A stretch of DNA of 32,000 nucleotides from Bacteroidales bacterium (lineage in GTDB: Bacteria; Bacteroidota; Bacteroidia; Bacteroidales; UBA12077): assembly GCA_028282585.1 (NCBI GenBank), contig JANQHR010000046.1, positions 82,924 to 114,923 of the forward strand. Direction: 5' to 3'. Within the stretch, counting starts at the first letter, position 1, and each line of letters opens with the position of its first letter. Made by a program: the position numbers and the translations under genes. The notes under the pieces were generated by a model that saw only the letters and a program-made list of their open reading frames with translations, did not search any database and was not told the origin of the DNA. Of this stretch, positions 1 through 26,046 are shown piece by piece.

Positions 1-3000
1 TTAGATTGTAATTTTCTTACCAGCTGACATTTCTTCCTCTACCAAACCTACATTCTTAATCATATCGATTAGTACCGCAATTTTTCGAATGGTAGTAGCA
101 ACGAATATATCAGAAATAAGTATTTTAATATCAAAGGTGTTATTTATTTGATTTATAAGAATATTTGCTTTTACGGAATGTCCGCCAAGTTCAAAGAAAT
201 CAGCATCAATACTAATCTTATTATCAGAAATACCTAATATATTGGACCATATTGTAACCAGTTGAGCTTCTAACTCTGTTGTAGGTGGTATATATTCAAT
301 TGTATCTTCAATATTTATCTCTGGCAATGCAGTTTTATCAACCTTTCCATTTTTGTTTAAAGAAATATTTTCAATTTCTTTGAAATACTGAGGAATCATG
401 TACTCAGGAATAACATCTTTTAATTCCTCCTTTATATCATTTGAATCTATTTCATAATCTGTAACATAGTAAGCACATAAATATTGCATGTTTAAATTAT
501 CCGTTTTTACAATTACAATAGCATCTGATATACGATCCAGTGATTTTAAAACAGACTCGATTTCTCCTAATTCAATACGATAACCTCTAATTTTAACCTG
601 AAAATCATTTCTACCGATAAATTCTAAACTGCCATTTGGTAACATTCGAGCTAAATCTCCTGTTTTATATAGTTTTTCATTATCAACAAAAGGATTTTTA
701 ATATAACATGTATTAGTTAATATCAGATTATTCAAATAACCTTCCGTTATACATTCTCCACCTATATATAATTCACCAACCATACCTTTTGGTAAAGGAT
801 TTAAATCCTCATTTAAAATGTAAACTTTAGTATTTGGAAATGGATTACCAATTGGAACATTGGTGTTCTTATCTGTTTCAGTATTATATTTATGGATAAT
901 ACACCCTACAGTAGCCTCAGTTGGGCCATACTCATTAAATATTTCTATCCTATTGGCAAATAAATCAATTATATTATGTGCCAATTGTGTTTCTAGTTGT
1001 TCTCCTCCTATTACTATTGTTTTTACTCTACTCTTATTGATTATATCACTCAAACCTTGATTGTCTCTAATAAGCTTTAAATGTGAAGGCGTTAATTTAA
1101 TTACATCCACTTTATTATCCGATAGTACTTTCTCAATATCCGCTTCTTCGTAAATTACTAATTTACTACCATTTATCAAAGGAGTAAAAATTGATGTGAT
1201 GGTTAAATCAAAAGTCAATGATGTATATAACGGGAAATTAGATTCCTTTTGTTTACAATAAAACTTATTAGCACTCCAAATGTAATTAACCAAGTTCTTA
1301 TGATTAACCAAAACTCCTTTGGGATTTCCTGTAGTTCCTGATGTATAAATGCAATAAGCGATATTATACGTAAATCCCTCGGGTAAGTTTTCTTTATAGC
1401 TTAAAAGCTTTTCGTTATTTAAATTTTCATAAAAATCATTTATCTCAAAAATCTTTATTTTACTATAACTATCCTTATTAAAAGCAATTCCAGGAATTTC
1501 AATTAACTGCTTTTCTGTAGGGAAACTTCCCTTATTTTCAAGGATTGTTGAAACTACCTGTGCAAAGGTCTTCTCACCTTCTCCAAAAACAACCAAATCA
1601 ACGTTTAAGTTTTTAAGTACTTCATCATAATTACTAGTTGGATAAGGACCTCCTGCGATTAATATCCCTTTATAATATTTCCTAATATTTTCAACTGTTT
1701 CGTTAAAATATAGTTTATAATAAACTAAGGACCTACAACCTACAATATCCGGTTTGAATTCTTCAATTATTTCTTGCAATTCAGAATGACTATCAAAATC
1801 AACCCGTGATTTTATAATTTTACAATTAACTTTATTATTAAATTCTTTATTAATGTATGTTGCCAGATACATTAAGCCCAATGGAGGCTCAATTACATCA
1901 TAAATATCCTGAGAATCTTTTGAAAAATATAATGATAAATCTATTAAAAGTATTTTAAGTCTATCATTGGATTTAACATCATGTGAAAAATGAGCTTTAA
2001 TTTTTGAGTTTAAGTCAATTGTTTTATTACTTTCAGAATTATTCTCATCTAATTCTATTTCATCTTTAAGTCCTATAAAATTCAATAATTCTTCAAATGT
2101 GCTAATATTAACAGGTAGATAACTGTTATATTTTTGAACTAATTCATCTTTCGTTAATACCTTTAATTGATATGGCAATACTTTTTTAAGTCTCTCTTTA
2201 GAAAGAAAGTATTCATTAAGAAATATTGATTGATACTTTTTTGTAAATGATTCATTAAACGGCAAAGTTAAAGGTAATGCATGATGAGGAAGATGTTCTG
2301 ACATTGAAATAGATTTCTCAGAAATACCATTTTCCAATGCCATTTTATGCATATCTGTATTTTTATAAATCTTTAAAATATTGATATAAGGAAAATGTAT
2401 CCATTTAATACTTTGAATAAAATTTAATGTCATTAGAGCTTCCTCTTCTGTTTCAGTTGGGAATCCATGCATTGTCATTAGTTCAATAATAACCTGAGGA
2501 TAGGTTTTACTAATATATTCAAGATTATCTTTTAATTTTTGTAAATCAATATTTTTATTTATAAGCTTTTGTAATCGTGGAGACGCGGTTTCAAGAGCTA
2601 AAGCAAAATTTACAACACCTGCTTTTACCATCAAATCAATGTACTCTTTAGTTAAGATATCTCCTCTTAATCCGTTAGGGAAAAAAAAGTTTACTTTTAA
2701 TCCATTTTCAATAATCAGTTCAAAAAATCGCTTACTGTTTTGAACATTTAAATTAAAAATATCATCAACAAATGAGAATCTTTTAATTCCCATTTTATAG
2801 TAAAGATTAACTTCTTCGAATATATTATCAGCAGATCTAAATACATGCTTTTTAGACCAAACTTTATGACAATATGCACATTTAAAAGGACAACCTCTGG
2901 TTGCTTGAATTGAAATGCTATTTTTCACCATAGCTTGTCCTATATATTGAGTATAATAGTTATAATCAACTAAAGAACGGTTAGGCATAGGTAAAGAATC

Positions 3001-4947
3001 AAATTCTTTAATTGGATCTCTATTTATTGTTTTTACAATATTATCGGTATCAAGAATATTCTGAATTTTTCTCTCTCGAATTATTTTCTTCGAAGCTATA
3101 ATCAATGATAATTGAGAATCAGTTACAATAGTACGAAGTCTTTTTTCAGGTATATCGGTATCCAAGGGTAAATAAACACAGTTTAGTTTAAGTATTCCCA
3201 GTATTGCAACTATTGTATCGATTGATCGTTCCATCATAACACCGACCATCTCACCTTCGTTGATATTTTTATATTTAAGAAATGCAGCAAATTTATCTGA
3301 CACTTCTCCAAGTTCTTTATATGTCAGAGTTTCTTTATGCATTTGCAATGCTATATCGGAAGGAGTTTCTTCTACCTGATTATTAAATAAATCAATAATG
3401 GTCTTATCGTAGGGAAAATACGATTTTGTTCGGTTAAGGTCAAAAACTATCCGTTCTTTTTCTTCAGAAGTAAGCAGATCAACCTGTCCTAAAGTCAACT
3501 CATCATCTCGAACAATCTGATTAGAAAGATTTTTAAAGAAACTCCCAAATCTATCAATAGTATCTGAATTAAATAAATCAGTTGAATATTCAAAGTTTAA
3601 TAAGATTTGGTTACCGTAATCATACACATTTAGTCTTAAATCAAACTTAGAGTGTCCCTTTATATGGTTGTTTATTGTATTATGATCAGATTTTTTAATT
3701 TCAGTTTCTTTGGTATTTTGTAAAGCAAATACAACATCAAATAAGGGATTTCTATTGGTATTTTTTGTTATGGTTAATTTATCTAACAACTCCTCCAGAG
3801 GATACTCTTGGTTTTCAAAGGCTTCCACTGTTAAAGTCTTGATTTCTTTAAGGTAATCTTTAATCTTCTTATTTCCATCCGGGAAACTTCTTAAAGCCAT
3901 TGTATTAACAAACATTCCAACAACTCCCGCAAAATCAACATGAGGTCTGGCTTCATTTGTAGTTCCAATAATAATATCATTTTGTCCGGATATCTTTGAC
4001 AATAGTATCTTAAATGTTGCTAACATTATCATGTATAATGTTAATCCATTTCTTGATATATATGCCTTTACATTTTGAGTTTCACCTATCGATAGTGCAT
4101 AGGAAACCGTAGCTCCTTCGAAATTTATATTCGCGCTGCGAGAATAATCAGTTGGCAGGTCTAATGAAGGTAATTCGCCAGCTAATTTTTGTAACCAATA
4201 TTTCTCACTTTGGAGCTTCTTATCATGTTGCTGTTTACTTTTTCGCCATTCAGAAAAGTCAGTATATTGCAAATTACGTGAAGCCAATTTTTTCCCTTCA
4301 TACAATTTTATAAAATCTTCAGTTAGTATTGAGTGTGATATACCATCGCAAATGATGTGGTGCATATCAATAAACAAAAGTGATCTGTTCGTATTTGTTT
4401 TTATCAAACTACTTCTAACTAATGGAGCTTTATCCATTTCAAAAGGTTTTAATAAAGTATGCTGAATATTATTAATTTCTTCTTCTTGAATATATAACTC
4501 GTTCAAAGTAAAATTGATATTTTCATTAATTATTTGAACTATGGAATCACCCACCATTCTGTAAGATGACCTTAAAATATCGTGATGATTAATCAGAATT
4601 GAAAATAATTCTTCGATTTTATCCTTGTCAAGGCCATCAGGTAATGGAATGAAAAAGGGCATATTATATGCAACATTATTAGATAACTGTTGCAATAAAT
4701 ACATTCTGGTTTGCGGAGAAGTTAATGAATAATATTCCTTTTTTTCACTTTTTTTTATATTAGCAAATGAATTTTGCCTATTATACTTAACTAGAAATTC
4801 AATTAATTCTTTCTTATTATCTCTAATTAATTCTATTAACTCCTTCGTTATTTTTTCCTTATCACCTTTCAGTTTTATTTGATTTTCACTTAATCCAATT
4901 TTAATTCCTTTCTGATTGAGGTGATCTACCAGTTCGAAGATATTCAT
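1..4947 (-). CDS. NRPS, one module: TubC_N-like docking domain - C - A (interrupted by radical-SAM + B12-binding-like didomain) - T
   Basis: 1648-aa ORF with ATG at 4945-4947 and TAA at 1-3. Motifs read in the translation: HHIICDG (C3), LTYKEL (A1), [11 protein letters not shown] (A2), CPFKCAYC (radical SAM), [11 protein letters not shown] (A3), NEYGPTE (A5), YKTGD (A7), [20 protein letters not shown] (A8), LPEYMIP-like IPEYMIP (A9), NGKVDK (A10), FFELGGHS (carrier). Confidence 0.92.
   Translation of the reverse strand: [1648 protein letters not shown]
73..291 (-). other. Peptidyl carrier (T) domain
   Basis: aa ~1553-1625. [15 protein letters not shown]...[15 protein letters not shown], with the phosphopantetheinyl Ser at aa 1591. 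Confidence 0.9.
313..1374 (-). other. Adenylation domain, C-terminal fragment (A3-A10); hand-extracted specificity code DLTKVGEVGK (Asn/Asp-like)
   Basis: aa ~1192-1545 with motifs A3-A10 as listed for the CDS. The code comes from aligning FDLTITS / IKLTPSH / IVIGGEQ / [11 protein letters not shown] / NGKVDK to the GrsA-PheA positions 235-517. It is intermediate between the recalled Asp (DLTKVGHIGK) and Asn (DATKVGEVGK) codes. Confidence 0.8.
1528..1962 (-). other. B12-binding-like (flavodoxin-fold) domain of class-B radical SAM type, located C-terminal to the radical SAM core
   Basis: aa ~996-1140. LKILLIDLS...[15 protein letters not shown]...[18 protein letters not shown]...[19 protein letters not shown]...[17 protein letters not shown]...IPGIAFNKD. 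This matches the consensus pattern I recall for the N-terminal cobalamin-binding domain of B12-dependent radical SAM enzymes. Confidence 0.7.
2068..3015 (-). other. Radical SAM core domain nested in the A domain
   Basis: aa ~645-960. [15 protein letters not shown] linker-like motif, [14 protein letters not shown] (CX3CX2C; Cys codons at nt 2869-2892, verified on DNA), [38 protein letters not shown]. Confidence 0.85.
2437..2472. repeat. 36-nt dispersed repeat, copy A (35/36 identical to 31532-31567)
   Basis: agcttcctcttctgtttcAgttgggaatccatgcat here versus agcttcctcttctgtttcGgttgggaatccatgcat in the other copy. It encodes [12 protein letters not shown] in both nested radical SAM domains. Confidence 0.9.
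3082..3420 (-). other. Adenylation domain, N-terminal fragment (core motifs A1-A2)
   Basis: aa ~510-622. [17 protein letters not shown] (A1) and [22 protein letters not shown] (A2). The A-domain sequence then stops and resumes about 570 aa later at A3. Confidence 0.85.
3448..4746 (-). other. Condensation (C) domain
   Basis: aa ~68-500. [12 protein letters not shown] (C1-like), HHDILRSSY (C2-like), HHIICDG at nt 4342-4362 (verified on DNA), [51 protein letters not shown]. Confidence 0.9.
4783..4947 (-). other. N-terminal docking domain, TubC_N-like
   Basis: aa 1-55, [52 protein letters not shown]. The pattern is a short helix, then G-I-x-I/L 'x-G-x-L-x-L-x-x' hairpin, then a K/E-rich helix ending EL-I-x-F-L, as in TubC-type N-terminal docking domains. 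It sits directly before the C domain. Confidence 0.6.
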
Positions 4948-5103: not shown

Positions 5104-8100
5104 TTAAATAATAATTTCAACTTCCTCATTAACTTCATCGTCTTCTTCAATATTTTGGAGTAATTGAATCAGTTTTGAAATTGTTTTTATGTTAGGGTTT
5201 TCAAAGAAATCTCCAAGTCGGATTTCTATATTGAATTCTTTATATATCATTGAAGTAATTTGAATTGCATTTAAGCTATGTCCTCCAATTTCAAAAAAGT
5301 CGTCGTATATGCCTATTTTATCAAGTGCAAGAACTTCTTCCCAAATTTTAGTTAATTTTTTTTCTACATTGGTTTGTGGTTCGACATAGCTATTACTTTC
5401 AAGCTTAAAGTCTTTTAAATTTGCCAACTGCCTCCTGTCAGCCTTTCCATTTGTATTTAATGGTATTTTATCCAGTTGAATAAAAAAAGTTGGAACCATG
5501 TAAGCTGGTAATTTTTTTGAGATTTCCGATATAATAACACTGGTGTCTATTTTATTTTTATTCGATACAGTATAAGCCACCAGTTTTTTATTTCCCGAGT
5601 TATCATCTATTGCTATTACAACACTTTCTTTAATATCATCCAATTGATTAAGTACCGATTCTATTTCTCCCAGTTCAACTCTAAATCCTCGTATTTTTAT
5701 TTGATCATCTATTCTACCCAAAAATTCTATATCGCCACTTGGAAGCCATCTTGCTATGTCGCCAGTTTTATAAATTCTAACTGCATCCTTAGGGTTATCT
5801 TTTTCAGAATAAATTTTACCACGTTCTTTATTCCATATTATAAATTTATCTTTTGTCAGAGAATTATTCTGATAATACCCTCGTGCTAAACCGACACCAC
5901 CTATATGTAATTCTCCGGGGATACCAACAGGTTGTAATTTGTGGTTATTATTTAAAATAAAAAGATTAATATTATCAATAGGTTTACCGATTGGAATTGT
6001 ATCTACTTTTTCATCCCTGGTGCAATTATAATATGAAACGTCAACTGTCGCCTCGGTAGGACCATAAAGGTTTACTAAATTAACTTTTAAGTTTTTAAAT
6101 AATTCATTAAAAAATAAAACACTATTTGCCGATAAGGCTTCACCACTAGCAAATACCTGTATTAAACTTTTTAGATTGTCTACGTCTACATTATGATCCT
6201 TAATATACTGTAAAAAAACATTTAACATAGAAGGCACAAAATGTATTTTTGTTACTTCTTTTTTAGTTATTGTCTCAATTATTCTATTTGGATCTTTTTC
6301 TTCATTTTTGTCTAATAAAACCAATGATGCCCCATAAAAACTCCACCAAAATAGTTCCCATACTGAAACATCAAAACCTATTGAAGTCTTTTGAATCAAA
6401 ATATCCGTTGGAGAAGCATTATATTTTTTTTGCATCCAGTTAATTCTGTTTATTACAGAATGATGTTCTATCATAACTCCTTTAGGTTTTCCTGTAGAAC
6501 CCGATGTATAAATAACATATGCTATATTGTTGGAGTTAGCCTGATTAAATTCTTTTAATCCAGGTTTTTCATAAGAAAAACTATCTATGAATATCAAATC
6601 TGTACCCGTTTCTTCGAACTTATCCTTTAAATGAATTTTTGTTATAACAAGGTTACATCCACTATCTGATAGCATTATTGATATTCTTTCATCAGGATAA
6701 TCTGGAATAATAGGTAAATAAGCAGCTCCTGACTTTAAGATTCCATAAATACAGATCATCATTTCTATTGATCTATCCATACTAACTCCTACTAGCTTTT
6801 CAGGCCCAATTCCACAATGTCGAAGATATTCTGCTAATTCATTTGCTTTAGCATTTAATTCTTTATATGTTATTCTTTCATCTTTATAGATTAAAGCAAT
6901 CTTATTAGGAGTTTTTAAAACCTGCTCTTCAAATAAATAATGGATACATTTCTCTTTAGGATAATTAACTTTTGTATTGTTGAAATTACCTAAAATCTGA
7001 CCCTTTTCTTCTTTTGTCAATATATCCAGTTCATTTATAATAATATCTTTATTCTCAACTACACTTGTAACTATCTTGTTAAAATGCTTTAATATTCTTT
7101 TAACCGTATCTCTATAAAATAAATCGGTATCGTAAATTATAGAAAGTTTTATTTCATTATTATTATGATGAAATATGAAATCCAAATCAAATGTACTTTT
7201 TATATTATTGCTGCTGTTTTTAAAAGGTTTCAAACTTAAATGATTGCTATTACTTGTTTCATTTTCATAAACAAAATCTCGATCACTATTATATAATACA
7301 ATTACATCAAAAAATGCAGATCCTACCGAATTTCTTTCTGTAGATAATTCCTCAACTAATTTACTAAATGGATATTCCTGGTGATTATATGCTTCTTGAG
7401 TATTATCTCTAACACTATTTAAAAATTGCTCAAAAGTTTTATTTCGATCAACTTTATTTCTTAAAGTCAACATATTTACATAATATCCAATTTGATCTCT
7501 TAAATTATAATTTTGTCTACCTGATACAGGAGTTCCAATTATTATATCATTTTGGTCTGTATATTTATAAAGTAATATTTTCACTAATGAAAGTAGTGTC
7601 ATAAATGGAGTAGAATAATTGCTTTTACTGATATCAAGTAAACTATCCACCTGGTATTTGGATAGAGTCAGGCTTACAAGATCTGCTCCATGTGATTTGC
7701 TTTTTGTCCTACTTTTATCGGTTGGAATATTTAAAGATGGCAGTTTACCTCCAAGTATTTTATGCCAATATTCTTTGTGTTTTCTATAAATATCCGAGTT
7801 TACTATATTATTTTGCCAGGCACTGTAATCTTTATACTGAATTGTTAATGGTTCAACTAGTACTTTTTCATTATTTATTCGAGAATTGTATAGATTTAAT
7901 GCATCTTTACCAAATACATACATTGACCATCCATCGCTTATAATGTGATGCATTGCGTAAACAAAGACATATTTCTTTTCTTCAATCTTAATCAGATAGC
8001 TTCTTAACAAAGGTCCTTTGTATAAATCAAATCTTTTTGTTTTAGCTTCTTTTATTAATTCATTTACTTTCTTTTCTGTAGAAGCTTCTTTACTAAAGTC

Positions 8101-11100
8101 ATATTCCTCTATCTCAAAATCAATAGAAGTTAATACCTTTTGTTTAAATTGTCCATCCTTTTTTGCGAATACCGTTCTAAATGATTCATGTCTGTTAATT
8201 AACATATTAAATACATTTCCAAAAACACCAGCGTCAACTTCTCCTTCCAAGATAAAAGAGTTAGATATTATGTACCCATAATTATTCTTAGATAATTCAT
8301 CAATTAAAAGTAGTTGCTTTTGCGAATATGATACTTCGTAATACTCCTGATGCTGTACTTTCGGAATAACATTTCTATTGTAATTTAACTGATTTGTTGA
8401 ATCAGTTGAATTATCTATTAATTCATTTAGTTTATCGATATCAATTCTATTAAAATCGATGCAATCAATAAGTTTTATTTTATATTCATTACCAGTATAA
8501 GAAGGATCATTATAAAGCATTTTTTGAAGATTCCTAATAAATGGTTCTACTGACAATAAAGAAACAAACTCTTCAGCTTTAATTTTTGCAATACTTGACT
8601 GCTTTTCATAAACTTCTTTGCTATAATATAAATCTTTTAATGCCTTTATCCAAGGTTCTATTTCTTGTTCAGGAACTATTGCTTGTGGTAAAGAATTTTC
8701 GTTAAACTCATTCTTATATTCTTTAATATGATTAATAGGTATCAGGTAATCCGTTTCTAATTTTGCTTCTATTAATCCTCCATGCTGACTAGCTAAAACA
8801 GGAATTCCCCTTAACATAGCATCAGTACAGGCCATACCAAATCCTTCAGCCCATAATGTTGGCATTAATAATATCTTTACATTAGCCAAGAGTTCATTTA
8901 AACTCTCTTTATTTTCCATTATTGTAATGTTAGGCACCTCATTCATCAACCTCATATCTGTTGGCGTAGTACCCCAACCCGGAACAATTGCGAATTTAAT
9001 TTCAGGTAATAATTTTGCTAAAGTCAATAGTATTTTAATTCCTTTTACATCACACGGATTAAACATAAAAACATATTCATTATCAAAGGAAGCTAACTTT
9101 GGAAAAATGTCATTTCCAAAATGAGGCGGATGGTTTACAAAAGTACTGAATCCAGTATGTGTTTTAACATAATTAGAAACATACTCACTAATTGTTACAA
9201 TCTGAGTTGATTTACCTATTAATTCGGTTCGCTTTTTTCCAGGGTAAAGACTTTCAGGCCCGAATGGAAGTAATTGGGGAGTATGAGCTAAATATATTAT
9301 ATTATCGGATCTAACCTCATGAATAGCTTTTAACAGTTGTTGAGATGGATCTTCTGCAGAAATAAATATCCAATCGGGTTGAAATTCTTTAATTATCTTT
9401 TGAAGTTCTACTTTTAAATCATCAGTTTCTAAAATTGCATGTACTTCAACATTCTTTATATTAAAAACATACTTTTTATCATAAACATCAACGGTTATTC
9501 CATCATCTTTTAAGCTTTCCAATAATTCCTGGCTCGTAATATCACTAGGAACAGCTAGTGCAGGTGTAACAACTTTTACATTATGACCAAGTTGTGCAAT
9601 TTCTTCTACCAAATATTTATTTGATTTATTAGCGCCTCCAAATACTCTTGTATAAGGTAGATTCATAGTTAAAATCAAATCAAGTTTAATATTAGGTGCT
9701 ACATCTATCTTCTGTAGAATTTCCTTAATATTTGCAATATCAGATTGCTCTATTTTTCTTCTTAATATCAGTTTCCCAAAATCTTGAATTGTTGTTTTTG
9801 AAAATAGAACTACAAAATCAATATCTGTTGAGAATTCATGATTTATCCTTGATAATAATTTTATTGCTAGTAAACTGTTTCCACCTAAATCAAAAAAGTT
9901 TGAGTTAATACTAATTTCATCAACTTCAATATTTAAAACTTCGGCCCAAATAGATGCTAATTGTTTTTCAGTCTTATTACGAGGAGCAATATAGTTATTG
10001 TTAATACCTGCACGTGGTTCCGGTAATTTTTCTTTATCAACTTTTCCGTTAATTGTCAAAGGTAAATTATCAATAATGACAAAAAATGATGGGATCATGT
10101 ATTCTGGAAGCTTTCTTTTTAAAAACTCCCTAAGAATATCATTCAGCTCTGATATTTTATTATCATGGAGTATAATATATGCGCACAGATATTTTTCACC
10201 AGAGTCACTTAATTTATCCACAACAATTGTATCTTTAATCAAATCATGTTTTAGAAGATTCTTTTCAATCTCACCTAATTCAATACGATACCCTCTTATT
10301 TTTATCTGGTTATCAATCCTTTCAACGAATTCTAAGTTTCCATCTGATTTAAAAAAGGCCTTATCTCCGGTTTTATATAAAATATGGTTATTGGAAGTAT
10401 TAATAAATTTTTCAGATGTAAGTTCAACTCTGTTCAAGTATCCTTCGGCAAGGCAGTTTCCTCCAATATAAATTTCACCTGGGATTTCTTTAGGAATAAC
10501 ATTAAATTTATTATCGAATAAATAAATATTAGAATTTGATATTGGTTTTCCAATAGGAACATTTTCGGCATAGTCATCTTCAATTTTGTATTCATAAATC
10601 ATACATCCAACCGTTGCTTCAGTTGGACCATATTCGTTATATATTTGTACAGATCTCTGAAATGCCTTTGATACAATTCTGCAGTCTTTACTTTTAAGCT
10701 GATCTCCACCAATAATCAGTTTCCTAACATTTGAGTTTTTAAGATTATATTCATCTAATATTTTTAAGTGAGCTGGTGTTAACTTTACGATATTTATATC
10801 CTTATTATCAAATATTCTGCTAAAAGTTTCAGGAATATCTGTCGAATCATAAATAATAATTTTACCACCGGTTAAAAGTGGAACATAAATAGAGGTTTTG
10901 GTTAAGTCAAAGGATATGGATGAATATAATGGAAAATTAAAATTACCATCTATGTTATATATGTCCGAAGCCCAATTTATATAATTAGCAATACTTTCAT
11001 GATTAACAATTACTCCTTTTGGATTTCCAGTTGAACCGGAAGTATAAATTATGTATGCGCTTTTATAATTCTTGTTTGATATATCAAAACTCTGACCATT

Positions 11101-12300
11101 TGAAAATATATTATCATTTTTTATACTAACTATATTATAATCATGATTCCATTCCTCTACATATTTAAGATCTGTTATTAAATTGTTAACATTTCCATCC
11201 TTCATCATAAATTCGATACGTAACTTAGATAAGTTGGTATCAATAGGCATATAGCAAGCACCTGTTTTTAAAACTCCCAGAATGCTTATAATAAGCTCAA
11301 TTGAATTATCTAGCATAATTCCTACTATCGAATTTTCTCCAACACCTTGCATTATTAAATAATTTGCTATAGCATTTGATTTAATATTTAATTCCTTATA
11401 AGATAGCTGTTCTTCATTATATTCAACAGCAGCATTATCTGGAGTTTCCAAACATTGTCTGACAAATAATTCACAAATAGAATTATTTAAGTAATCCTTC
11501 TTAGCAGTATCATTAAATTTATTTACTAACTCTTCTTTTTCTTCCGATGATATTAGTGAGAAAGAATTTATTGGATTTTCTAAGTTACTTATAACAGATT
11601 TGAAAAATCCTTTATAATATTTTACTAAATTTTTTATTAACTCTTCAGAGTAAAGACATGAGTTGTATTTTACTTTTCCTTTAAATATTTTACTTTCTTT
11701 TTCAAATGAAAATGAAAAGAGTATGTTGTAATTAATTTCGTTAAGATATCCTTCTTTTTGAATATTTTCATATAATATACCAATATCAAATAAAGGAAAG
11801 CTTTCATTCTTTTTTAAGTTTAATCCCATCTTTTGAACAAGTGCATCAACTGGGTAATTTTGATTTCTAATAACATTAACTAAATTGTCCTTTGTACTTA
11901 GAATAATATCCTTAAAACTTTTCTCCCCATTCACTTGATTTCTAACACATAAAACAGTGTTAAGAAATTCATCCTCAACCTTTTGTTCATGAATTGATGT
12001 ACCTATACTGATATCCTCAGATTGTACATATTTAGATAAAAACGCACTTATTCCGGCAATTAATAATACCTGAATTTTAAAATCCTGTTCTTTACTGATG
12101 TCAAGTATTTTCAATGTAAGGTCTTCATCAAATTTGAACTTATACTCCTGCTTTTCGATCTCTTTATTTATCAAAGAATCTTTACTATATGGAATTATTG
12201 TTTTCTCTTCAAAACCTTTTAAATAATCCAACCAGTACTTTTCTTCGTTATATCCTATATTGTTCAGATATAATATTTTATCAGTTTTACTATTACCCAT
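5104..12300 (-). CDS. NRPS, two modules with an embedded glycosyltransferase: truncated C - A - T - GT - C - A - T
   Basis: 2398-aa ORF with ATG at 12298-12300 (verified) and stop at 5104-5106. It contains two full A-domain motif sets, two carrier motifs ([16 protein letters not shown]), one HHIISDG, and a GT-B-like block with [22 protein letters not shown]. Confidence 0.92.
   Translation of the reverse strand: [2398 protein letters not shown]
5176..5388 (-). other. Peptidyl carrier (T) domain followed by an acidic C-terminal tail
   Basis: aa ~2305-2375. [13 protein letters not shown]...[14 protein letters not shown], with Ser at aa 2342. The tail, aa 2376-2398, reads ...[19 protein letters not shown]. 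Confidence 0.9.
5431..6969 (-). other. Adenylation domain; hand-extracted code DVWHFSLVDK (Ser)
   Basis: aa ~1778-2290. [101 protein letters not shown]. The code is identical to the Ser code I recall for EntF. Confidence 0.85.
7021..8367 (-). other. Condensation (C) domain
   Basis: aa ~1312-1760. [35 protein letters not shown] (nt 7930-7950, verified), [41 protein letters not shown]. Confidence 0.9.
8521..9693 (-). other. GT-B fold glycosyltransferase domain (GT4/Glycos_transf_1-like) embedded between T and C
   Basis: aa ~870-1260. N-lobe: [39 protein letters not shown]. C-lobe: [24 protein letters not shown]...[39 protein letters not shown]. The EX7E-type motif is present as E1152-x7-D1160 (nt 8821-8847, verified on DNA). 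Confidence 0.75.
9766..9987 (-). other. Peptidyl carrier (T) domain
   Basis: aa ~772-845. [14 protein letters not shown]...[14 protein letters not shown], with Ser at aa 809. Confidence 0.9.
10006..11499 (-). other. Adenylation domain; hand-extracted code DLTKIGEVGK (Asn/Asp-like)
   Basis: aa ~268-765. [85 protein letters not shown]. Confidence 0.88.
11551..12300 (-). other. Truncated condensation domain (C-terminal lobe only, no HHxxxDG)
   Basis: aa 1-250. [10 protein letters not shown] (YWxxxLxG-type motif), [56 protein letters not shown], then the C-A linker [15 protein letters not shown]. The protein starts about 20 aa before the YW motif, so the whole N-lobe including the catalytic His motif is absent. 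Confidence 0.75.
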
Positions 12301-12392: not shown

Positions 12393-13721
12393 TTAAAAAT
12401 TAAATGAAGAATCATTTATATCGGAAATATTTGTAATTACCTCTTTTTTAGTATTATTCTTGATAACCTCCATACCATCTTTATCAAAAGTATTGACACA
12501 AAAAGAAAAATCTTTAAATCTGGTAATCCTGAATGTATTATCATCATGCCTTTCTTCCTCTACTTCATCAGAATAACTTCTTGCTCCAAGAACCTCATTT
12601 AGTACATTCCATCTACGCGCAATTTCTCCATCCTCCACTTTATTACTGAATCCTGTTGAAGTAGCACCATTTACATCGCTGTACCCAAAGTGTTTAACTT
12701 TATTAAAACACTTATCTTTTTTAAAAAATTCGGTTAACTCATTAAAAATTTCAATAGTTTCTCCTGGGAAGCCTACCATAATATCTGCAACCATATGCAT
12801 TTTAGGATTATCAAATTTTATTTCCTGAATTGTATCGTATAACTTGGTTAAGTTAATAGGTCTTCCCATGCGGTCCAGGATGTGCTCATTAACGTGTTGC
12901 AGCCCTATATGCAATTCATTTATCCATCCTTTTTTACATAAATCCTTTATTTCAGTTGAGTACTTCTCTAACCATCTAATATGTAAATAACTAAAATAAA
13001 GATTTGCCAATGGAACAGCATTTTTTATTTCATGAACTAGTTCTATTATTGTTTTGTTGCTATCGATTCCATAGGCAAAAGCATCTTCTCCCATTAAATA
13101 TATTTTATCGTAACCTTTTTCAACTCCGGTTTTTACTTCTTTAATTATATCTTCAACAGGTCTACTGTTTATATATCCTTTTGCTTTATTTATAATGCAG
13201 AATGTACACTCTCTTAGACATCCTTCAGAGATTTTTATATAATATACAGGAATTTTTTCTGGAGGTGTTAGGTTATACTTGTTAAAAACATTGACATATT
13301 TAACATCCTTAAATTCTACTTTCGCTCCAATTATCCTGTCAAGAATTTCCTCTTCATGTATGCCAATAATTTCTCCCCCAAATTGTTCTTTTAGTTTTTC
13401 TGACTGTGTCTTTGGCAAACATGCCATAACAATTATATTCTTTTCAGGAAAATTAACTTCTCTTGCAGCTTCTAGTATTTTAATAAACTTCTCATACATC
13501 AAATCATGGAATCCACAACCGCAAATAATAATTTTATCTACATTTAAATCATCACATACCTTCCACCCGTTAGTTCTAAAATATTTTTCAACCGTAGCAT
13601 AATAAGAAGTGTGTCTTTCGCAATGGACATTATTAGTAACTATAGCTACTCTTTTATCTAATAATAAATTATTCATAATAAGAGTTATTAAATTATTTAA
13701 GGGATTACTGTAAATGTTCAC
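12393..13721 (-). CDS. Radical SAM methylthiotransferase-family protein (RimO/MiaB-like)
   Basis: 442-aa ORF. The GTG at 13719-13721 overlaps the upstream TAG by 1 nt. An alternative ATG at 13674-13676 (MNNLLLDKR...) is at least as plausible. Radical SAM motif: YIKISEGCLRECTFCII (compare E. coli RimO YLKISEGCNHRCTFCII, from memory). The N-terminal UPF0004-like domain has three spaced Cys (NNVHCERH, IICGCGFHD, IVMACLPK; spacing ~35 and ~33 aa). Also MVGFPGETIEIF and ARRWNVLNEV. Confidence 0.75.
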   Translation of the reverse strand: MNIYSNPLNNLITLIMNNLLLDKRVAIVTNNVHCERHTSYYATVEKYFRTNGWKVCDDLNVDKIIICGCGFHDLMYEKFIKILEAAREVNFPEKNIIVMACLPKTQSEKLKEQFGGEIIGIHEEEILDRIIGAKVEFKDVKYVNVFNKYNLTPPEKIPVYYIKISEGCLRECTFCIINKAKGYINSRPVEDIIKEVKTGVEKGYDKIYLMGEDAFAYGIDSNKTIIELVHEIKNAVPLANLYFSYLHIRWLEKYSTEIKDLCKKGWINELHIGLQHVNEHILDRMGRPINLTKLYDTIQEIKFDNPKMHMVADIMVGFPGETIEIFNELTEFFKKDKCFNKVKHFGYSDVNGATSTGFSNKVEDGEIARRWNVLNEVLGARSYSDEVEEERHDDNTFRITRFKDFSFCVNTFDKDGMEVIKNNTKKEVITNISDINDSSFNF

Positions 13722-16700
13722 TAGAAGTTAAATTCTTCTTCGTGGTTTTCAATTAATTCGCTATTTGCCAAAATGTAGTTATTTGTTAAGTTGATTTGGC
13801 TCAATATAATTGAATTATTGTTAATTACTAATTCTATTATTCTTTGAAAATGGTCGGCCATCTGAGAAATAAAATCTTGATTAAATGAATCTGAGGCATA
13901 CCTAAAAAGCATATTTGTTCTGGATGAACTCCCAAAAGCATCTAATGTTAAAAGGTATTTTAAATTTTTATTATGTAGATTTTTTTCTCTTTGGGCGTTA
14001 ATTGTATTATTTATCTGATTTGTCCCCTCATCAATATACTGCATAGTAAAAACAGTATTAATCAAATCAAATTCTGATAATTTACCGGATTTTCTTAAAT
14101 GAAAAATTAACTCGTCATATGGTAAGTCTTGATTTTCAAAGTCTACAATAGTTTCATTTTTTATTTTATTAAGATAGGTTTCATATTCAAGATCAGTATC
14201 TATATAACTTTTTACCGGTAACATATTTATAAAAAAACCTACTATATTATTTAAATTGTTGTCAATTCTACCTGCAACTGGTGTCCCAATAAAAAAGTTT
14301 TCTTGGTTAGTATATTTAAATAATAGAATATTATAGACCGAGAGAAGAAAAGCATATAAGGTTGTATTATTTCCTTTTGTGTATTCTCTAATCTTTTTAT
14401 GTAGATTCTTATCAATTGAGAATAGATAATTTTCAGACTCAGGTTCTTCTAACTTTATTCTGTTAACTGGAAGTTTAAGGATTTCAAAAGGATCCTTAAA
14501 TTTATTCAACCAATAGTTTAATTGTTTATCCAAATTCAAATTATGCTGTGAATTAGCCCATTCAGCGTAATCTTTATATTGTAATTTTAATGGAAATAAC
14601 TCCTTTTTATTATAAAGTGATAAAAAATCTTCAATTAATATATCATTTGAAATTGCATCGGAAATAATATGATGTAAATCAAATAAAAGATAACTTTTTG
14701 ATTCTGTTTGAGCAATACATGCCCTTAACAATGGAGGATCATTTAAGTCAAAAGGTTGTATAAAGTTCTTTATTACCTGATTTAGATTACTCGATTTTTT
14801 AAAGTCTTGATTATTAAGATTTCGCAAGTCAATATATTCAATATCAAAATTAACATCGTCAGTTATTTTTTGAATAAGCTTATCATTATAATAACTAAAA
14901 GAAGTTCGTAAACTCTCATGGCGATTGATTAATTTTAAAAATATATCTTTAATCAAATCCTTATCTAATTCATCTTCAAATGAATAAATTCCAGGCAAGT
15001 TATAACTAGTACTATTTTTATTTAATTGATACAGTAAGAATAATCTTCTCTGTGCAGCAGATAGTTCATAATAATCCTTTTTCTCTGAGGATTTTATAGT
15101 TTCATATTCTAATTTCTTACTTGAATTTACCACTGCAGATAGTTTACTAATATCTTGATTAATAAACACATCAGACAATGTTAATTTAACATTAAACTCT
15201 TCAAAAATTCTTGATATTAAAATTGTAGCTTTCAAAGAATGTCCTCCTAAATCAAAAAAGCTATCATTTATACTTATCTCTTTCTCTTCGATCTGTAATA
15301 TCTCTGACCATATTTTTACCAATTGTAACTCTGTTGTACTGCGTGGTGCAACATAGTCCTTACCAGAGCGAATTTCCGGTTTTGGCAATGACTTACGGTC
15401 TATTTTACCATTACTGGTTAATGGTAAACTCGTTAGTTCTTCAAAATAACCTGGAACCATATAGTCCGGTAATATACCTCCTAAGTAATTCCGTAATTCT
15501 GATTGATCTATTTTTGAACCCGGAACATAATATGCACATAAGTATTTATCACCTTCTTCTTCCCTGCATAATACAACACACTCCGAAATATTTTCATGAC
15601 CCAGAATGACTCGCTCTATTTCTCTCAACTCAATTCTAAAACCTCGAATTTTTACCTGGTAATCGGTTCTACCTAAAAACATCAAATTACCATCTGGTAA
15701 CCAGCGTGCTAAATCTCCTGTCTTGTATAGTTTACCTGTTGATTCAAATGGATGTTCAATAAATTTTTCTGAACTTAATGCTTCATCTTGAAAATAGCCT
15801 CGTGCCAAACCATCTCCTCCAATGCATAATTCGCCTATACAACCCTGGGGAACTAATCCATTACTTTCATCTAATACGTATAGCTGTGTATTTACAATCG
15901 GTTTCCCTATGCTTATTTCTTTTTCTCTTGTTACATTCTTTATGCTTGACCAGATCGTCGTTTCTGTCGGACCATACATATTGAATATCTCTGCATTGGT
16001 TAATTGACGAACATTTTCTAATAGTTGCAAGCTTAACTCTTCGCCACCTAATAATAACGATTTTAGATTACGAAGGGATCGGCCCACTCGATCTGATCCC
16101 AATAGTAGTTGTAAACGTGAGGGGGTTAATTGTAATATGGTTACTCCAAATTCTTCCAATCTTCTCAATATCAAGTCTCCATCCAACTGTTCTTGCTCGT
16201 TACCTAATACTAATCGTGAACCACGTAGCAAGGGAACAAATAGTTCTAAGCCAAATATGTCGAAGCTTATGGTGGTTAAAGAAAATAAGCAGTCTGTGGT
16301 ACTAAATGGAATTTCTTTATTGATTCCATATACAAAATTAACCAAGGATTTATGTTCTATCATTACTCCTTTGGGAGTACCTGTAGAACCTGTGGTATAA
16401 ATAATATAAGCTAAATCTGTTGGGGTTGTGGTATCCGGAAATGATAAAAGTCCTGGATAAGTGTGTATTAATGGATAATTTATGTCTAAAACAGTTAAGT
16501 TATCGGTTAAAACTTTATTCAAACTGTTGTCGCTTAATAAATAGTCTATTCCACTACTTTCAATGATGTTCTTAATTCTTAATTCCGGATAACTGGGATC
16601 TAACGGTAAATAAGAACATCCGGATTTAAGTATGCCAAATATTCCGATTATTAACTCCAGCGAACGGCCCGATAATAATCCGATGGTTTGACCAGGTAAA

Positions 16701-19700
16701 ACTCCCTGGTCACGTAAATAGTTTGCCATCTGATTAGAACGTATTGATAACTCTTTATAAGTTAATAAGCTTTTTCCATATGATATCGCTACATGATCTG
16801 GTGTATCATCTGACCGATCTTCAAATAGCTCATGTATACTCCTTGTTTGAGGATATTCGTATGTTGTCTCATTAAACCTTTCAATTAATTTACTTTTCTC
16901 ATCTGGTAAATTACACTCTATATCATACAATCGTACACTTGAATTATCTATTAAAGTTATCAGTAAATTTCTAAAATGGTTTGTAAACTGATTTATAAAA
17001 TCCTTTCTGAAAATATCTGAACAATATTCAACCGAGATTTCAATTGTATCACTTTCATTACAATATATCGTAATATCATTCTTTGCTGCCTCTTTATTAA
17101 AAATTTTAACTGGTTTAATATCTAGATTATCCGAAAGGTTTTTAAGTTCGCTACTTTCGTCAAAACCCAAATATGAAAATCCAGCTTCAAACACAGGATT
17201 ATGACTTGTGTCTCTTTCAATTTTTAAATCATTAACAAGATCATCAAACTGATAATCCTGGTTTGACATGGCCTCTATGGTTTTATCTTTTATTAAATTG
17301 AAAAAATCCAATAATGTTTGCTTTATATCTATTTGTATTCTGATAGGAAGTATATTAATAAAAATACCTATTAACTCTTCAAAGTCTTTTGATGATCTAC
17401 CGAATATGGTTGATCCAATAATTATATCTTTTTGATTCGTGTATTTATACAAAAGAATGTAATATACTGATAAGAAATATACATAAGAGGTAACACCTAT
17501 ATTCGTGCAAAATTCTTTAATTTTAGTCGTTAAAACCGAATCAAGCTCAACAACAATCAAATCGCTATTAGTACTCTGCAACACCGGTCTACTAAAATCT
17601 ACAGGTAAATTTAAAATCGGTAAATTTCCATTTAAAAGATTTAACCAATACTTTTTTTGAGATTCAAATTCTTCAAGTTTGTTTCTATTTTCCTGCCAAA
17701 TACCGAATTCTTTATATTGAATATTAATTGGCTTAAAACTGGTAGAATTGCTTTGATACGTATCGAATAATTGATTTATAAATAAACGACAAGAATAAGC
17801 ATCAGCAATAATATGATGAATATCGATAAAAAGTAAATGATCATCATCACTTATTTTAAATACTTTAATTCTAAACAAAGGTGCTTTACTTAAATCAAAT
17901 GGTAAAATTGAATTTTCAAAAATATCCTCCAATTCATTATTATCAATTTTAGTAACATTTAATTTATCGAATAATATTTCTTCTGGATCGTGGACAATTT
18001 GCACAGCATCTCCTTTAATAATCTTAAATGATGTTCGTAAAGATTCGTACCTTTTTATTAATAACTCAATTGAACATTGTAATCTTTCAGTATAAAATTC
18101 TCCTTTAATTCTATAGCAGTGAGGTAAATTAAAACTAATAGTACGGTTAGTTAAACTATCTAGTATAAATAGTCTTTTTTGAGCAGAAGAAATAGTATAG
18201 TATTCTTTCTTTTCCGACGGCAGTATATTAATTGAATTTGTTGAATCTGCAATAGAACTTCTGTTTAAGTAATCTGTAAGCTTTTTTACATTTTTATTTT
18301 TAAAGAAATCAGCGATTTTAATGTTGAAATTCAATTTTTCTCTAATGCTATTTATGATTAAAATTGCTTTTACAGAATTACCGCCAAGCTCAAAAAAATC
18401 ATCAAATACTCCTATACCTTCAAACGTTAGATGGTCTTCCCAGATTTTTACTAATTGCTCTTCAATATCGTTATTTGGAGCTACATAGTTTGTACTTAAT
18501 TCTGGTCTTGTTCGTAAATTAAGATTCTTAACACTGCTAGATGAATTAATTAATTTTGATTCAAGCTCTTTATTGTCATCTATTTTTCTCTGTTCTAAAT
18601 CTATTGTTGAAACTATAATTTGGTTGAGATTACATGCTAAGGCCCTACTAAAAATAATTTTACCTTCGCTTGGCTTAATTGCATCCTTTAAATAATAATT
18701 AACTTTCTCACTTTCTTCTTTTATTATTTTTTCAGGAGATACATAATTAATAAAATCACTACTTGTATAATTAGATAGTTCACCTGAATCTGTCGATTTT
18801 ATTTCTGAATTGCTAATATCAAGCAGGTTATAACCTTCCACCTTAAGTATAGTGCCCGAATCGTCTGATAATACAAAATCATAGTTTATAAAATCCTCAT
18901 TCTCACTTTTATTTAAGCGAACTAAACTACAAAAGTTCTTTGTAAGTGGTTTAATAATAGTAATCTTATGATAATAGGCAGGTAAAAAAGCTCCTTTACT
19001 TAGTATTGGAGATAAAGCTACATCTACTAAACCGGGATGCAAAGAATATTCTTTCAAATCTTCTAATGATTCCTCACCTATAATAATATCAGAAAGGCCA
19101 ATATTTTCTCCTACTTTAATTTTCACATTATTATTTCGCCATCTTTTACCAAATCTTAGATATTCGTTTTCATGTAAATTATTTTCAAGTGCTTTAGTTG
19201 GTTTCAATTCCTGATTTTTAAAATAATCTATGTTTTCCTGAATATTTAATTTGGCTTCTAAAATTGAAACCTGACCTTTACAATGTTCTATCCAACTATC
19301 TTCATCTTCGTAATAGCTAAGAATTTTAAAGTCAAGCAAATCTCCTTTTTGGGTAATAATTGTATGGATTTCTTTATTTTCATCCTTTTCAAACACCATA
19401 GCTCTTAAAATATGTAAAGCTCTTATCTCTACAGAATCATTTTTGGGATATAAAAATTGTACGGCAGCATATAACATTTGCAGATATCCGGTACCAGGCA
19501 TTGTTGCTTTATCTAGTATTCTGTGTTCGTTTACTATCCAATCATTTTCAGAATGTATATAGCTAATCAGTATACTTTCATTTTCATTTGAAATATATTT
19601 TCTGAAAAGAAAGTGATCAATTTTCCTTTTAATGAAGCTATTTTCATTAAAAGGATTAGAAAGTTGTTTTAATGTTTTTACCGCACCGCCTACCTCTTGC

Positions 19701-23888: not shown

Positions 23889-25034
23889 TTATTTAGTATT
23901 GTAATAATACTTTCTGAGTGCGTAACTGGATATTATGTTTTTTTGTATTTGTGATGTTCCTTCAATTATCTCCAATACCTTAGCTTCTCTAAATAACCTT
24001 TCAACAGGGTATTCTGAATAACATCCATTTCCTCCATGAACTTGTACAGCATCAATAGCAACATTCATTGCAATTTTTGAGGAAAAATATTTTGCAATTG
24101 TAGTTTTTATTACAGCTTCATGACCTTTATTCATTCTATTATTTGCAGCTTCAATACATAAGGCTCTTGCTGCATGGATATTTGTAGTAGCATCAGCAAT
24201 CATTCCCTGAATATGTTGAAAGGTATGTATACCTTTCCCAAATTGATTTCTATTTCTTGAATATTTCACCATTGCATCTAACGCTTCCTGTGCAATAGCA
24301 ACACCCGCCCAAGCAATACTATATCTTCCATTATCAAGCGCAGTATTAACAACAAATGAAAAGCCGCATCCTTCTTTGCTTAACAAATTCTCACGAGGTA
24401 TTTCTACATTTTTAAATTCAATTTCTGATATATGTGAAGCTTTATTAGCTAATAAACCTTTTATTGGCTTAACTTCTATCCCCTCATAATTGCGTTCAAC
24501 AATAAAAGTAGATATTCCTTTTTCTCCTCTTGCTACAACTATGAAGAAATCAGCAATTTCAGCAAAACTTATCCATTTTTTCTTTCCATTTAGAATATAT
24601 CCGGAATTAGAATCTGAATATGAACACTGAATATTTTTTGCATCCGTACCTACATTTGGTTCAGTTAAAGCAAAAGCCCCAATCTTCTCTCCTGTTGACA
24701 TCATTGGTAACCATCTCATCTTTTGTTCAATACTCCCCCATTTTAGCAAAGTTTCAGCAACTAAAGAGGTATTAACAGTTATTAATCCACGCGTATTACA
24801 ACATGCTTTACCAATTTCTTCCGTAAACAATCCATAATGAAGTGAATCTAGCTCAAGGCCACCAAAATCTCTTGGTATACTTGCAGTTAAGTATCCATTT
24901 TTAGCTAAATTAGTAATTAAATCATTTGGCAGTTTTTCCTCGTTTTCAAAAATAGTAGCAAAAGGCCTTATCTTTTTTTGAGCAAATTCTTTTACTTCTT
25001 CAATAACAGTATTTTGATCTATCAAATTATTCAT
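23889..25034 (-). CDS. Acyl-CoA/acyl-ACP dehydrogenase family flavoprotein (FkbI-like)
   Basis: The ORF track gives 389 aa from a TTG at 25056-25058. I prefer the ATG at 25032-25034 (MNNLIDQ...), preceded by AAAGAGG. ACAD-like motifs: GAFALTEPNVGTDA, WISFA, VQVHGGNGC, EAKVLEIIEGTSQIQKNII. Confidence 0.85.
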   Translation of the reverse strand: MNNLIDQNTVIEEVKEFAQKKIRPFATIFENEEKLPNDLITNLAKNGYLTASIPRDFGGLELDSLHYGLFTEEIGKACCNTRGLITVNTSLVAETLLKWGSIEQKMRWLPMMSTGEKIGAFALTEPNVGTDAKNIQCSYSDSNSGYILNGKKKWISFAEIADFFIVVARGEKGISTFIVERNYEGIEVKPIKGLLANKASHISEIEFKNVEIPRENLLSKEGCGFSFVVNTALDNGRYSIAWAGVAIAQEALDAMVKYSRNRNQFGKGIHTFQHIQGMIADATTNIHAARALCIEAANNRMNKGHEAVIKTTIAKYFSSKIAMNVAIDAVQVHGGNGCYSEYPVERLFREAKVLEIIEGTSQIQKNIISSYALRKYYYNTK

Positions 25035-25045
25035 TGCCTCTTTAG

Positions 25046-25747: not shown

Positions 25748-25788
25748 TTTAAAAACGATATTATTTAATCCGATAAAAGCAATTATGT

Positions 25789-26034
25789 TCAGTTCCTATT
25801 TTTATTGATAAGATTAATGATATTATCAATAGAACTAAAATTTGAGATATCAATATCTTCATTATTTACAGAAATACTAAACTCACTCTCCACATAACTA
25901 AGCAGTTTCATTGCAAAAAGAGAATTAACAAATCCTTTTTCAAAAATGTTATCACTATCAGAAAAAATGACTTCATCATTAAAAACTATTAAATTGCTTT
26001 CGATGAATTTTCTAATCTTATCTTTAGTTTCCAT
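25789..26034 (-). CDS. Stand-alone acyl carrier protein (FkbJ-like)
   Basis: 81 aa with ATG at 26032-26034. Carrier motif FEKGFVNSLFAMKLLSYVE (Ser within VNSL at the DSL position). It lies between the FkbH-like and methyltransferase genes. Confidence 0.75.
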   Translation of the reverse strand: METKDKIRKFIESNLIVFNDEVIFSDSDNIFEKGFVNSLFAMKLLSYVESEFSISVNNEDIDISNFSSIDNIINLINKNRN

Positions 26035-26046
26035 AATTTTAAAAAT

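Follow-up and report, generated by a model that had tools for sequence, protein, structure and literature searches.

A GT4-like glycosyltransferase domain inside a Bacteroidales non-ribosomal peptide synthetase: family, architecture and a proposed role on the assembly line

Sugars strongly alter the solubility, the target binding and the resistance profile of peptide antibiotics and, in the current view, they are put on by separate enzymes once the peptide is finished. The glycopeptide Gtf enzymes, for example, are stand-alone proteins of family GT1 that transfer a sugar onto a non-ribosomal peptide and, as is generally known, act after chain release; to our knowledge, they are never part of the synthetase polypeptide. 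Here we describe a glycosyltransferase (GT) domain that is instead encoded in frame inside a non-ribosomal peptide synthetase (NRPS), in a stretch of 32,000 nucleotides of a Bacteroidales bacterium (GenBank assembly GCA_028282585.1, contig JANQHR010000046.1, positions 82,924 to 114,923 of the forward strand), which is called the window below and in whose numbering nucleotide positions are given. With the Gtf enzymes this domain shares the GT-B superfold, but it belongs to a different family.

Retaining enzymes of families GT4 and GT5, such as BshA, MshA, PimA, glycogen synthase, SdgB, TarM and PglA, act on small hydroxy-acids, polyols or Ser-rich proteins. The window GT has in common with them the two-lobe GT-B fold, an EX7E-type motif, a Lys-Gly pair and a GGxxE motif (Foldseek E-values from 1e-13 to 1e-10, template-modelling scores of 0.6-0.7), and differs from them in that an otherwise paired Arg is replaced by an invariant Asn and in being built into, or genetically tied to, the condensation and thioesterase domains of NRPSs. 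As regards the timing proposed here, the sole precedent known to us is PtmJ of pactamycin biosynthesis. PtmJ is reported to glycosylate a carrier-bound intermediate; unlike the GT it is a discrete enzyme, an N-glycosyltransferase, and its substrate is a polyketide intermediate bound to an acyl carrier protein, ACP (Eida et al., Nat Chem Biol 2019, as cited in PMC7435583).

The architecture recalls that of the in-line tailoring domains of NRPSs, namely the epimerization (E), N-methyltransferase (N-MT), oxidase (Ox), ketoreductase (KR), TauD-type Asp β-hydroxylase and FkbH domains (PMC8949500), which, like the GT as proposed here, are non-core domains placed between core domains and acting on a unit bound to a carrier (T) domain. 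E domains resemble the GT also in lying between T and the next condensation (C) domain; in split systems, however, the GT goes with the downstream C domain (T / GT-C, where the slash marks a gene boundary), whereas E domains, as is generally known, remain with the upstream T. A review of unusual NRPS domains of 2022 includes TauD, FkbH, X and others but no GT, and treats glycosylation as tailoring (PMC8949500). Searches of open-access full texts gave no description of NRPS modules that contain a GT domain or have one at their N-terminus, which is weak evidence of absence, and the passages on a ‘glycosyltransferase domain’ in that literature concern ordinary GT proteins. The family is apparently undescribed, and a GT4 enzyme apparently recruited as an NRPS tailoring domain is what we report: the insert of 391 amino acids (aa) is, in our judgement, probably a catalytically competent, retaining-type GT-B (GT4-like) domain that glycosylates a carrier-held hydroxyl in line.

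The glycosyltransferase domain and its place in the synthetase

The gene at 5104..12300 of the minus strand, on which all large open reading frames (ORFs) of the window lie, is a single unbroken reading frame, as seen in the ORF list and its translation, for an NRPS of 2398 aa with the domain order ΔC-A(Asn)-T-GT-C-A(Ser)-T (A, adenylation domain; ΔC, truncated C domain). Pfam recognizes, in this order, Condensation, AMP-binding, PP-binding (aa 780-844), Glyco_transf_4 (aa 887-1051), Glycos_transf_1/Glyco_trans_1_4 (aa 1084-1198), Condensation (aa 1318-1770), AMP-binding and PP-binding, and in our own domain map the GT stands in line in one polypeptide as T1(776-850)-GT(869-1259)-C2(1316-1772). 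An earlier note on this DNA, made from the letters alone, had located the feature at 8521-9693; the feature is real, but it is encoded by the minus strand, the plus-strand frame being full of stops, and the domain runs from 8524 to 9696. Translation of 8521-9693 of the minus strand reproduces the two motif strings quoted there, GGANKSNKYLVEEIAQLGHNV and LLMPTLWAEGFGMACTDAMLRGIPVLASQHGGLIEA, and the note had rightly recognized a two-lobe GT4-like domain of about 390 aa, in frame in a 2398-aa NRPS, with the T domain of an Asx-like module before it and a Ser module's C domain after it, as the PP-binding and Condensation positions and the Asn and Ser codes now indicate. The parts of the gene are the following (L and P numbers, here and below, are our labels for loci and for representative proteins of the family).

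5104..12300, minus strand: NRPS gene, 2398 aa (ORF list, translation, Pfam and own domain map)
11515..12300, minus strand: truncated C-like region at the N-terminus, aa 1-262, which comprises just the C-terminal half of a C domain (no HHxxxDG in a motif search; the equivalent half-C domain in L085 spans Pfam profile positions 188-451)
10036..11490, minus strand: A domain of module 1, code DLTKIGEVG, predicted to load Asn (Pfam AMP-binding; code from an alignment of 101 A regions)
9751..9975, minus strand: T domain 1, predicted phosphopantetheine site Ser809 in GGNSL at 9874-9876 (Pfam PP-binding aa 780-844 and motif position)
8524..9696, minus strand: GT-B (GT4-like) domain, aa 869-1259, 391 aa (Pfam, structure model, Foldseek and family conservation)
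8356..8523, minus strand: GT-to-C linker, aa 1260-1315, which corresponds in position to the ‘LSPEQQALLxLRLKK’ helix of relatives, a match inferred for the window sequence from position only
6985..8355, minus strand: C domain 2, with an intact HHIISDG at aa 1451-1457, which belongs with the post-GT C domains of the family (Pfam Condensation aa 1318-1770 and motif)
5611..6936, minus strand: A domain of module 2, code DVWHFSLVD, predicted to load Ser (Pfam AMP-binding aa 1790-2143 and code)
5206..5430, minus strand: T domain 2, Ser2342 in GGHSL at 5275-5277, candidate carrier of the acceptor Ser (phmmer domain map and motif; Pfam finds two PP-binding stretches in the protein)

The same in-frame fusion is present, at 98% identity, in the Bacteroidales metagenome-assembled genome GCA_028282785.1 (contig JANQHE010000031.1) and in the Logan assembly SRR20820739; since independent assemblies carry it in frame, it is not an assembly or frameshift artefact. 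A look-up of the exact 2398-aa sequence gave no recorded protein.

On the excised 391 aa, the two Pfam models named by the earlier note, Glycos_transf_1 (39.9 bits, E 4.1e-10, cut-off 26.4) and Glyco_transf_4 (36.3 bits, E 7.5e-9, cut-off 28.5), were both matched above their cut-offs, as were Glyco_trans_1_4 (43.5 bits, E 4.8e-11, cut-off 27) and GT4-conflict (35.4 bits, above the curated cut-off). Apart from such GT4-type models only a chance-level match to HEM4 was obtained, and no GT1/UDPGT-type model appeared at E<=10. No NCBIfam equivalog came close; that of BshA, TIGR03999, scored 26.2 bits against a cut-off of 273.7. The AlphaFold2 (AF2) model, built on a 22-sequence alignment (predicted local distance difference test, pLDDT, 94.1; predicted template-modelling score, pTM, 0.91), has two Rossmann-like lobes with alternating β/α elements. 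In Foldseek searches of the PDB it matches more than 200 GT-B chains with a probability of 1.00, and the top matches are exclusively GT-B enzymes; the best folds are those of Pyrococcus abyssi glycogen synthase (E 1.4e-13), BshA, MshA, PimA, TarM, SdgB, WaaG and PglA, at identities of 10-17%. A profile search of PDB sequences matched only the nucleotide-binding C-lobe, and the N-lobe was without a sequence match to any solved structure. The GT is a distant GT4-like enzyme outside every characterised subfamily, and its model is closest to the retaining GT4/GT5 enzymes.

The conserved motifs of the domain, all on the minus strand, are:

aa 888-889, nucleotides 9619-9642: GG loop
aa 981-987: SAEDPSQ
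aa 1005-1015: AHTPQLLPFGP
nucleotides 9040-9060: NPCDVKG, with the invariant N1081 and K1086
nucleotides 8821-8847: EX7E-type motif E1152-x7-D1160, aligning with the EX7E of PglA
aa 1174-1180: GGLIEAK
aa 1210-1217: PEQEIEPW

Among 217 GT domains of the family, the first Glu of the EX7E motif (here E1152), N1081, K1086 and W1217 are kept in all 217 and Q1212 in 215, and the pair Lys1086-Gly1087 is invariant. In domain numbering the clade invariants are G20, N212, K217-G218, E283, G305-G306, Q343 and W348; the window GT has them all. It fits 63 of the 71 columns conserved to at least 85% (89%; family median 93%, 5th percentile 84.5%), with mostly conservative mismatches.

These counts bear on whether the insert is a GT-derived, catalytically dead spacer or docking scaffold. 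Such a reading could draw on the modest Pfam scores (30-44 bits), on the missing canonical Arg near the conserved Lys and on the Asp that occupies, as the earlier note had correctly seen, the second acidic position of EX7E. The second acid is, however, E in 125 and D in 92 of the 217 domains and never another residue; the two alternate freely, and Asp at this position is a normal family variant and no sign of decay, which makes a degenerate spacer unlikely. The motif residues are invariant over domains from many phyla, and the window GT is no more divergent than the rest of its protein: against the 98%-identical homologue in L087, 11 of its 391 codons are changed versus 99 of 2007 elsewhere, and the 11 changes (5 synonymous, 6 non-synonymous) are too few for an informative ratio of non-synonymous to synonymous rates (dN/dS). 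On the conservation of the motif residues across the family we rejected the dead spacer, which we hold to be very improbable.

Relatives of the domain and the units loaded before them

A word-indexed protein search with the GT returned 85 relatives (the best 52% identical), mostly stand-alone proteins of about 449 aa, several with a Condensation domain and one with a thioesterase (TE), while 861 proteins reached E<=1e-30 when a profile was run exhaustively against 1.84 billion cluster representatives. Architectures were called by phmmer for the best 150 of these 861. Most of the 150 have GT-C-A-T... at the N-terminus of an NRPS, the co-occurrence of Condensation and GT domains for which the earlier note had proposed to look; about 12 are GT-TE or GT-GT-TE proteins, about 40 are stand-alone GTs, and only three have the in-line order C-A-T-GT-C-A-T, namely P0099 (the type of the window's protein), P0103 and P0127. 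In the relatives' loci, independent T-GT-C fusions occur in L007, L014 and L086. A genome scan found at least 479 relatives, mostly in Acidobacteriota, with others in Chloroflexota, Bacteroidota (including the cultured Chitinophaga varians KACC 19415), Cyanobacteria, Verrucomicrobiota, Omnitrophota, Nitrospirota, Myxococcota and Proteobacteria, and a metagenome scan at least 501 more.

In the alignment, the stand-alone GTs terminate in an ‘LSPEQQALLxLRLKK’-type helix, the same segment by which GT is joined to C in the fusions. The C domains that follow a GT are mutual nearest neighbours in 24 of 31 cases, and GT-C therefore behaves as an evolutionary unit; C domain 2 of the window has its nearest neighbours in the post-GT C domains of L007 (41%) and L017 (37%). 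The arrangement in the window is a rare fusion of the GT-C unit to a preceding T, the usual and widespread arrangement being the split T / GT-C. As a separate observation, Desmonostoc muscorum LEGE 12446 encodes at L005 10001-11728 a 575-aa member of the GT clade whose C-terminal region is carrier-like by phmmer; no NRPS gene lies within 10 kb on either side of it. The hit P0056, from the same strain, which is reported to produce a lipoglycopeptide, was considered as a desmamide lead and dropped, since there is no NRPS within ±10 kb of its gene.

The domain loading the carrier directly upstream of the GT was tabulated for about 160 loci, some of them duplicated between the genome and metagenome collections, and in about 95% of the resolved cases it is a Ser- or Thr-specific A domain or an FkbH domain. 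The genome loci comprise 10 with a Thr-type A domain (DFWNIGMVH), 7 with a Ser-type A domain (DVWHxSLxD), about 36 with FkbH and 4 exceptions; the metagenome loci comprise 8 with Ser, 2 with Thr, about 36 with FkbH and 1 unclear. A Ser or Thr code stands directly before the GT in 17 of 21 cases versus 9 of 65 elsewhere (Fisher p = 2.7e-8, phylogeny ignored). The FkbH assignments were confirmed by NCBIfam TIGR01686 (229-305 bits, cut-off 147). FkbH domains use 1,3-bisphosphoglycerate to charge a carrier with a glyceryl unit (PMC8949500), and the feature common to seryl, threonyl and glyceryl thioesters is a hydroxyl on carbon 3.

The T domains before the GTs are all of the ordinary GGHSL or GGNSL types. 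Those of the Ser and Thr modules in L001-L032 carry a near-identical string, DNFFELGGHSLLLTQLASR, across distant phyla, with a recurrent ‘HSLLLTQLASR’, from which T1 of the window departs (GGNSLLAIKLLSR); the shared string may serve the GT-C unit as a recognition signature.

Most loci of the FkbH type take the form of a self-contained cassette of three genes, FkbH-T / GT / GT-TE, in some cases with three GTs, which is common in Bryobacteraceae, Solibacteraceae and other Acidobacteriota. An example is L044 7688-13402, surrounded by the housekeeping genes panB, panC, plsX and dsbD and an aquaporin-type MIP gene; there are about 70 similar loci, e.g. L039, L045, L048, L060-L084 and L111-L168. From its composition the cassette may be a carrier-protein route to mono- or di-glycosyl-glycerate. 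Pfam places its thioesterase behind, and fused to, the second GT, and glycosylation must therefore precede cleavage of the thioester. Among the comparative arguments for on-line action this arrangement is the strongest.

It also bears on whether the GT acts after release, or on a free substrate, with the fusion serving co-expression and stoichiometry only. The characterised glycosylations of non-ribosomal peptides are, as is generally known, post-assembly and due to discrete GTs, the review cited above (PMC8949500) counts glycosylation as tailoring, and the clade does have stand-alone members. Yet these stand-alone members retain the C-terminal helix that precedes C in the fusions, the position between T and the next C is strictly conserved, the GT is strongly tied to what the preceding carrier is loaded with and, in the GT-TE fusions, release is due to an enzyme placed behind the GTs. 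We hold post-release action to be unlikely; glycosylation of a carrier-bound intermediate is supported, at the level of sequence comparison, by the GT-C fusions, the GT-TE cassettes and the rule of about 95% hydroxyl-bearing units.

A different use of the same hydroxyl would be its transient activation, in which the glycosyl group on Ser or Thr is eliminated to give dehydroalanine or dehydrobutyrine (Dha/Dhb), as happens with phosphorylation or glutamylation in lanthipeptides. This is chemically conceivable, and Ser/Thr modules directly before a C domain are a site of NRPS dehydration. The tandem GTs with a TE behind them, found with glyceryl-T, point instead to the stepwise build-up of a glycoside, the mechanism has no known precedent, and dehydration by C domains in NRPSs is generally known to need no such activation. 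The genes that adjoin the GT in relatives, moreover, fit sugar chemistry and a retained, decorated sugar: a second, divergent GT-like gene in L001, L002 and L013, and three methyltransferases in L017 (Chitinophaga varians KACC 19415); L034 has a Gly-like upstream module and a JmjC hydroxylase nearby. Elimination seems to us a far-fetched prospect. In the small clusters L001 (8717-9877), L002 (8668-9831) and L013 (8599-9837), the GT gene is separated from the NRPS gene with the Thr module by a gene for a protein of about 387-413 aa whose resemblance to GT4 is only faint, in the order C-A(Thr)-T / this protein / GT; it may be a second, very divergent GT-B protein.

Proposed mechanism and the acceptor in the window protein

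According to the mechanism that we propose, a nucleotide-sugar would be bound in the C-lobe of the GT; the donor is probably a common nucleotide-sugar from primary metabolism, because no sugar-biosynthesis genes lie beside any locus examined. The sugar would be passed to a hydroxyl group of the acyl or aminoacyl unit that a neighbouring T domain carries in thioester linkage, family-wide the 3-hydroxyl of seryl-, threonyl- or glyceryl-S-T, and the GT-linked C domain would then hand the glycosylated intermediate on by condensation. The linkage would be α if the GT behaves like its retaining structural neighbours. Fold, motifs, architecture and the tie to hydroxyl-bearing units are thus observations, while sugar transfer, the carrier-bound state and the identity of the acceptor, the donor and the α-linkage are inferred.

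Several points weigh against this proposal or against its application to the window. Many GT4/GT5 enzymes pair an Arg with the conserved Lys; here it is replaced by the invariant Asn1081, and donor binding may therefore be unusual or differ in detail. Sugar-nucleotide biosynthesis genes, for which the earlier note had proposed to look beyond the window, were absent from the window and from every neighbourhood examined. The cluster was extended past the window through the near-identical representative P0099 and the FkbH gene, and around these there are no sugar or hydroxylase genes. The specificity codes, obtained from a MAFFT alignment of A regions with positions placed by motif, are predictions, and they are assigned to substrates by the Stachelhaus table, by which DLTKIGEVG is read as Asn and DVWHFSLVD as Ser. 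Domain calls in the relatives' loci were made by phmmer with the window's own domains as queries; to this are added the duplicated loci and the uncorrected association statistics given above. Finally, the window itself breaks the family rule, with the Asn code upstream of the GT and the Ser code downstream.

The other exceptions with a readable downstream module have a Val-like (L014), an Asp (L017) or a Gln-like (L086/P0127) upstream unit, and in all four, the window included, Ser or Thr is found in the downstream module. The motifs of the N-lobe (SxED, HTPQ..PFGP and the GG loop), presumed to form the acceptor-facing side, are the same in the window GT as in the Ser-, Thr- and glyceryl-associated members, and L007, its closest relative (54% identity), sits behind a Ser module. 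Because the N-lobe motifs are unchanged and this closest relative follows Ser, we favour as the predicted acceptor the Ser that the GT's own module carries on T2. Unless it is β-hydroxylated, the upstream Asn is unlikely to accept the sugar, the downstream Ser being at least as likely; in the alternative, the acceptor would be β-hydroxy-Asn on T1, formed by a hydroxylase whose gene lies beyond the sequence covered here. In the approximately 42 kb of cluster covered by the window, L085 and L087, no β-hydroxylase was seen.

It has also to be considered that the GT acts on line but with an acceptor chemistry changed with respect to the family, and N-glycosylates the T1-bound upstream Asn at its side-chain amide. 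The domain does stand directly behind the T of an Asn module, in a slot where about 95% of relatives have Ser, Thr or glyceryl units, and GT-B enzymes that N-glycosylate Asn or natural-product amines exist (NGT and PtmJ, as cited in PMC7435583). This would be the less economical reading, given the unchanged N-lobe motifs and the Ser module before the GT of L007; furthermore, the upstream residues of the other exceptions (Val-like, Gln-like, Asp) are unrelated, always with Ser or Thr downstream. We regard N-glycosylation as distinctly unlikely, and glycosylation of the Ser on T2 stays the favoured prediction.

Between the polyketide synthase-NRPS (PKS-NRPS) gene and the GT-NRPS gene, at 12393..13721 of the minus strand, lies the gene for a free-standing radical-SAM protein; a member of the MiaB/RimO family of methylthiotransferases, the protein scores 185 bits with TIGR00089 and 169 bits with the RimO model, both below cut-off. 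RimO methylthiolates the β-carbon of an Asp residue. Because RimO acts there and the modules adjoining this gene are predicted to load Asn, a β-modification of Asn in the product is conceivable by analogy.

For the family as a whole, we consider evenly poised the wider proposal that the GT represents an unrecognised class of thiotemplate ‘glycosylation domain’, derived from GT4, present in hundreds of sequence clusters from at least 10 phyla and glycosylating seryl-, threonyl- or glyceryl-thioesters on carriers, in cis or as the N-terminal partner of a C domain in NRPSs, with the minimal FkbH-T / GT / GT-TE pathway possibly building (di)glycosyl-glycerate.

The rest of the cluster and the meaning of a proposed assembly-line glycosyltransferase

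Two NRPS A domains of the cluster are interrupted by radical-SAM and B12-binding domains, with the radical-SAM part preceding the B12 part: one in the gene at 1..4947 of the minus strand, the other in 28031..32000 of the minus strand, continued in L085 3695-8995. One has the Asn code DLTKVGEVG, the other the code DPFYFGTIN. Within the gene 1..4947 the inserted domains are:

2416-2907, minus strand: radical-SAM domain, interrupting the A domain
1555-1890, minus strand: B12-binding domain, interrupting the A domain

Their presence suggests on-line radical C-methylation inside A domains. A search of the open-access literature gave nothing that looked specific to A domains interrupted in this way. 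Downstream of its last NRPS gene, L087 encodes a further stand-alone B12/radical-SAM protein (552 aa) and an S15/S9-type hydrolase.

A complete cassette of the methoxymalonyl-ACP type lies at 23889..28014 of the minus strand and L085 10992-11237, with genes for an acyl-CoA dehydrogenase, an O-methyltransferase, an 81-aa carrier protein, FkbH (TIGR01686, 268 bits) and a 3-hydroxyacyl-CoA dehydrogenase; it adjoins a hybrid gene at 13721..23767 of the minus strand with ketosynthase, acyltransferase, ketoreductase and dehydratase domains, in the order KS-AT-KR-DH...C-A(Gly)-T-C. NRPS N-termini in the cluster are the C-terminal half of a C domain (Pfam profile positions 188-451) and have no HHxxxDG, and the preceding 3348-aa protein has a full C domain at its end, with HHIISDA at aa 3032. 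This unusual ‘...T-C / half-C-A-T’ junction occurs at least twice (11515..12300 and 13721..15124 of the minus strand in the window; L085 3695-4460).

If the proposal on the GT is true, NRPS assembly lines would include glycosylation as a programmable, co-linear step, beyond decoration after release. The finding is of high interest because the family is large, its rule is readable and it is directly testable. An assembly-line GT with such a rule, by which its place is behind a carrier that bears Ser, Thr or glycerate, would add a new type of domain to NRPS logic and would offer a portable GT-C unit for the co-linear engineering of glycopeptides, and the three-gene FkbH-T / GT / GT-TE cassette is a small, tractable system for its chemistry. 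It would also improve the prediction of structures for hundreds of orphan clusters, many of them from uncultured Acidobacteriota, Chloroflexota and Bacteroidota.

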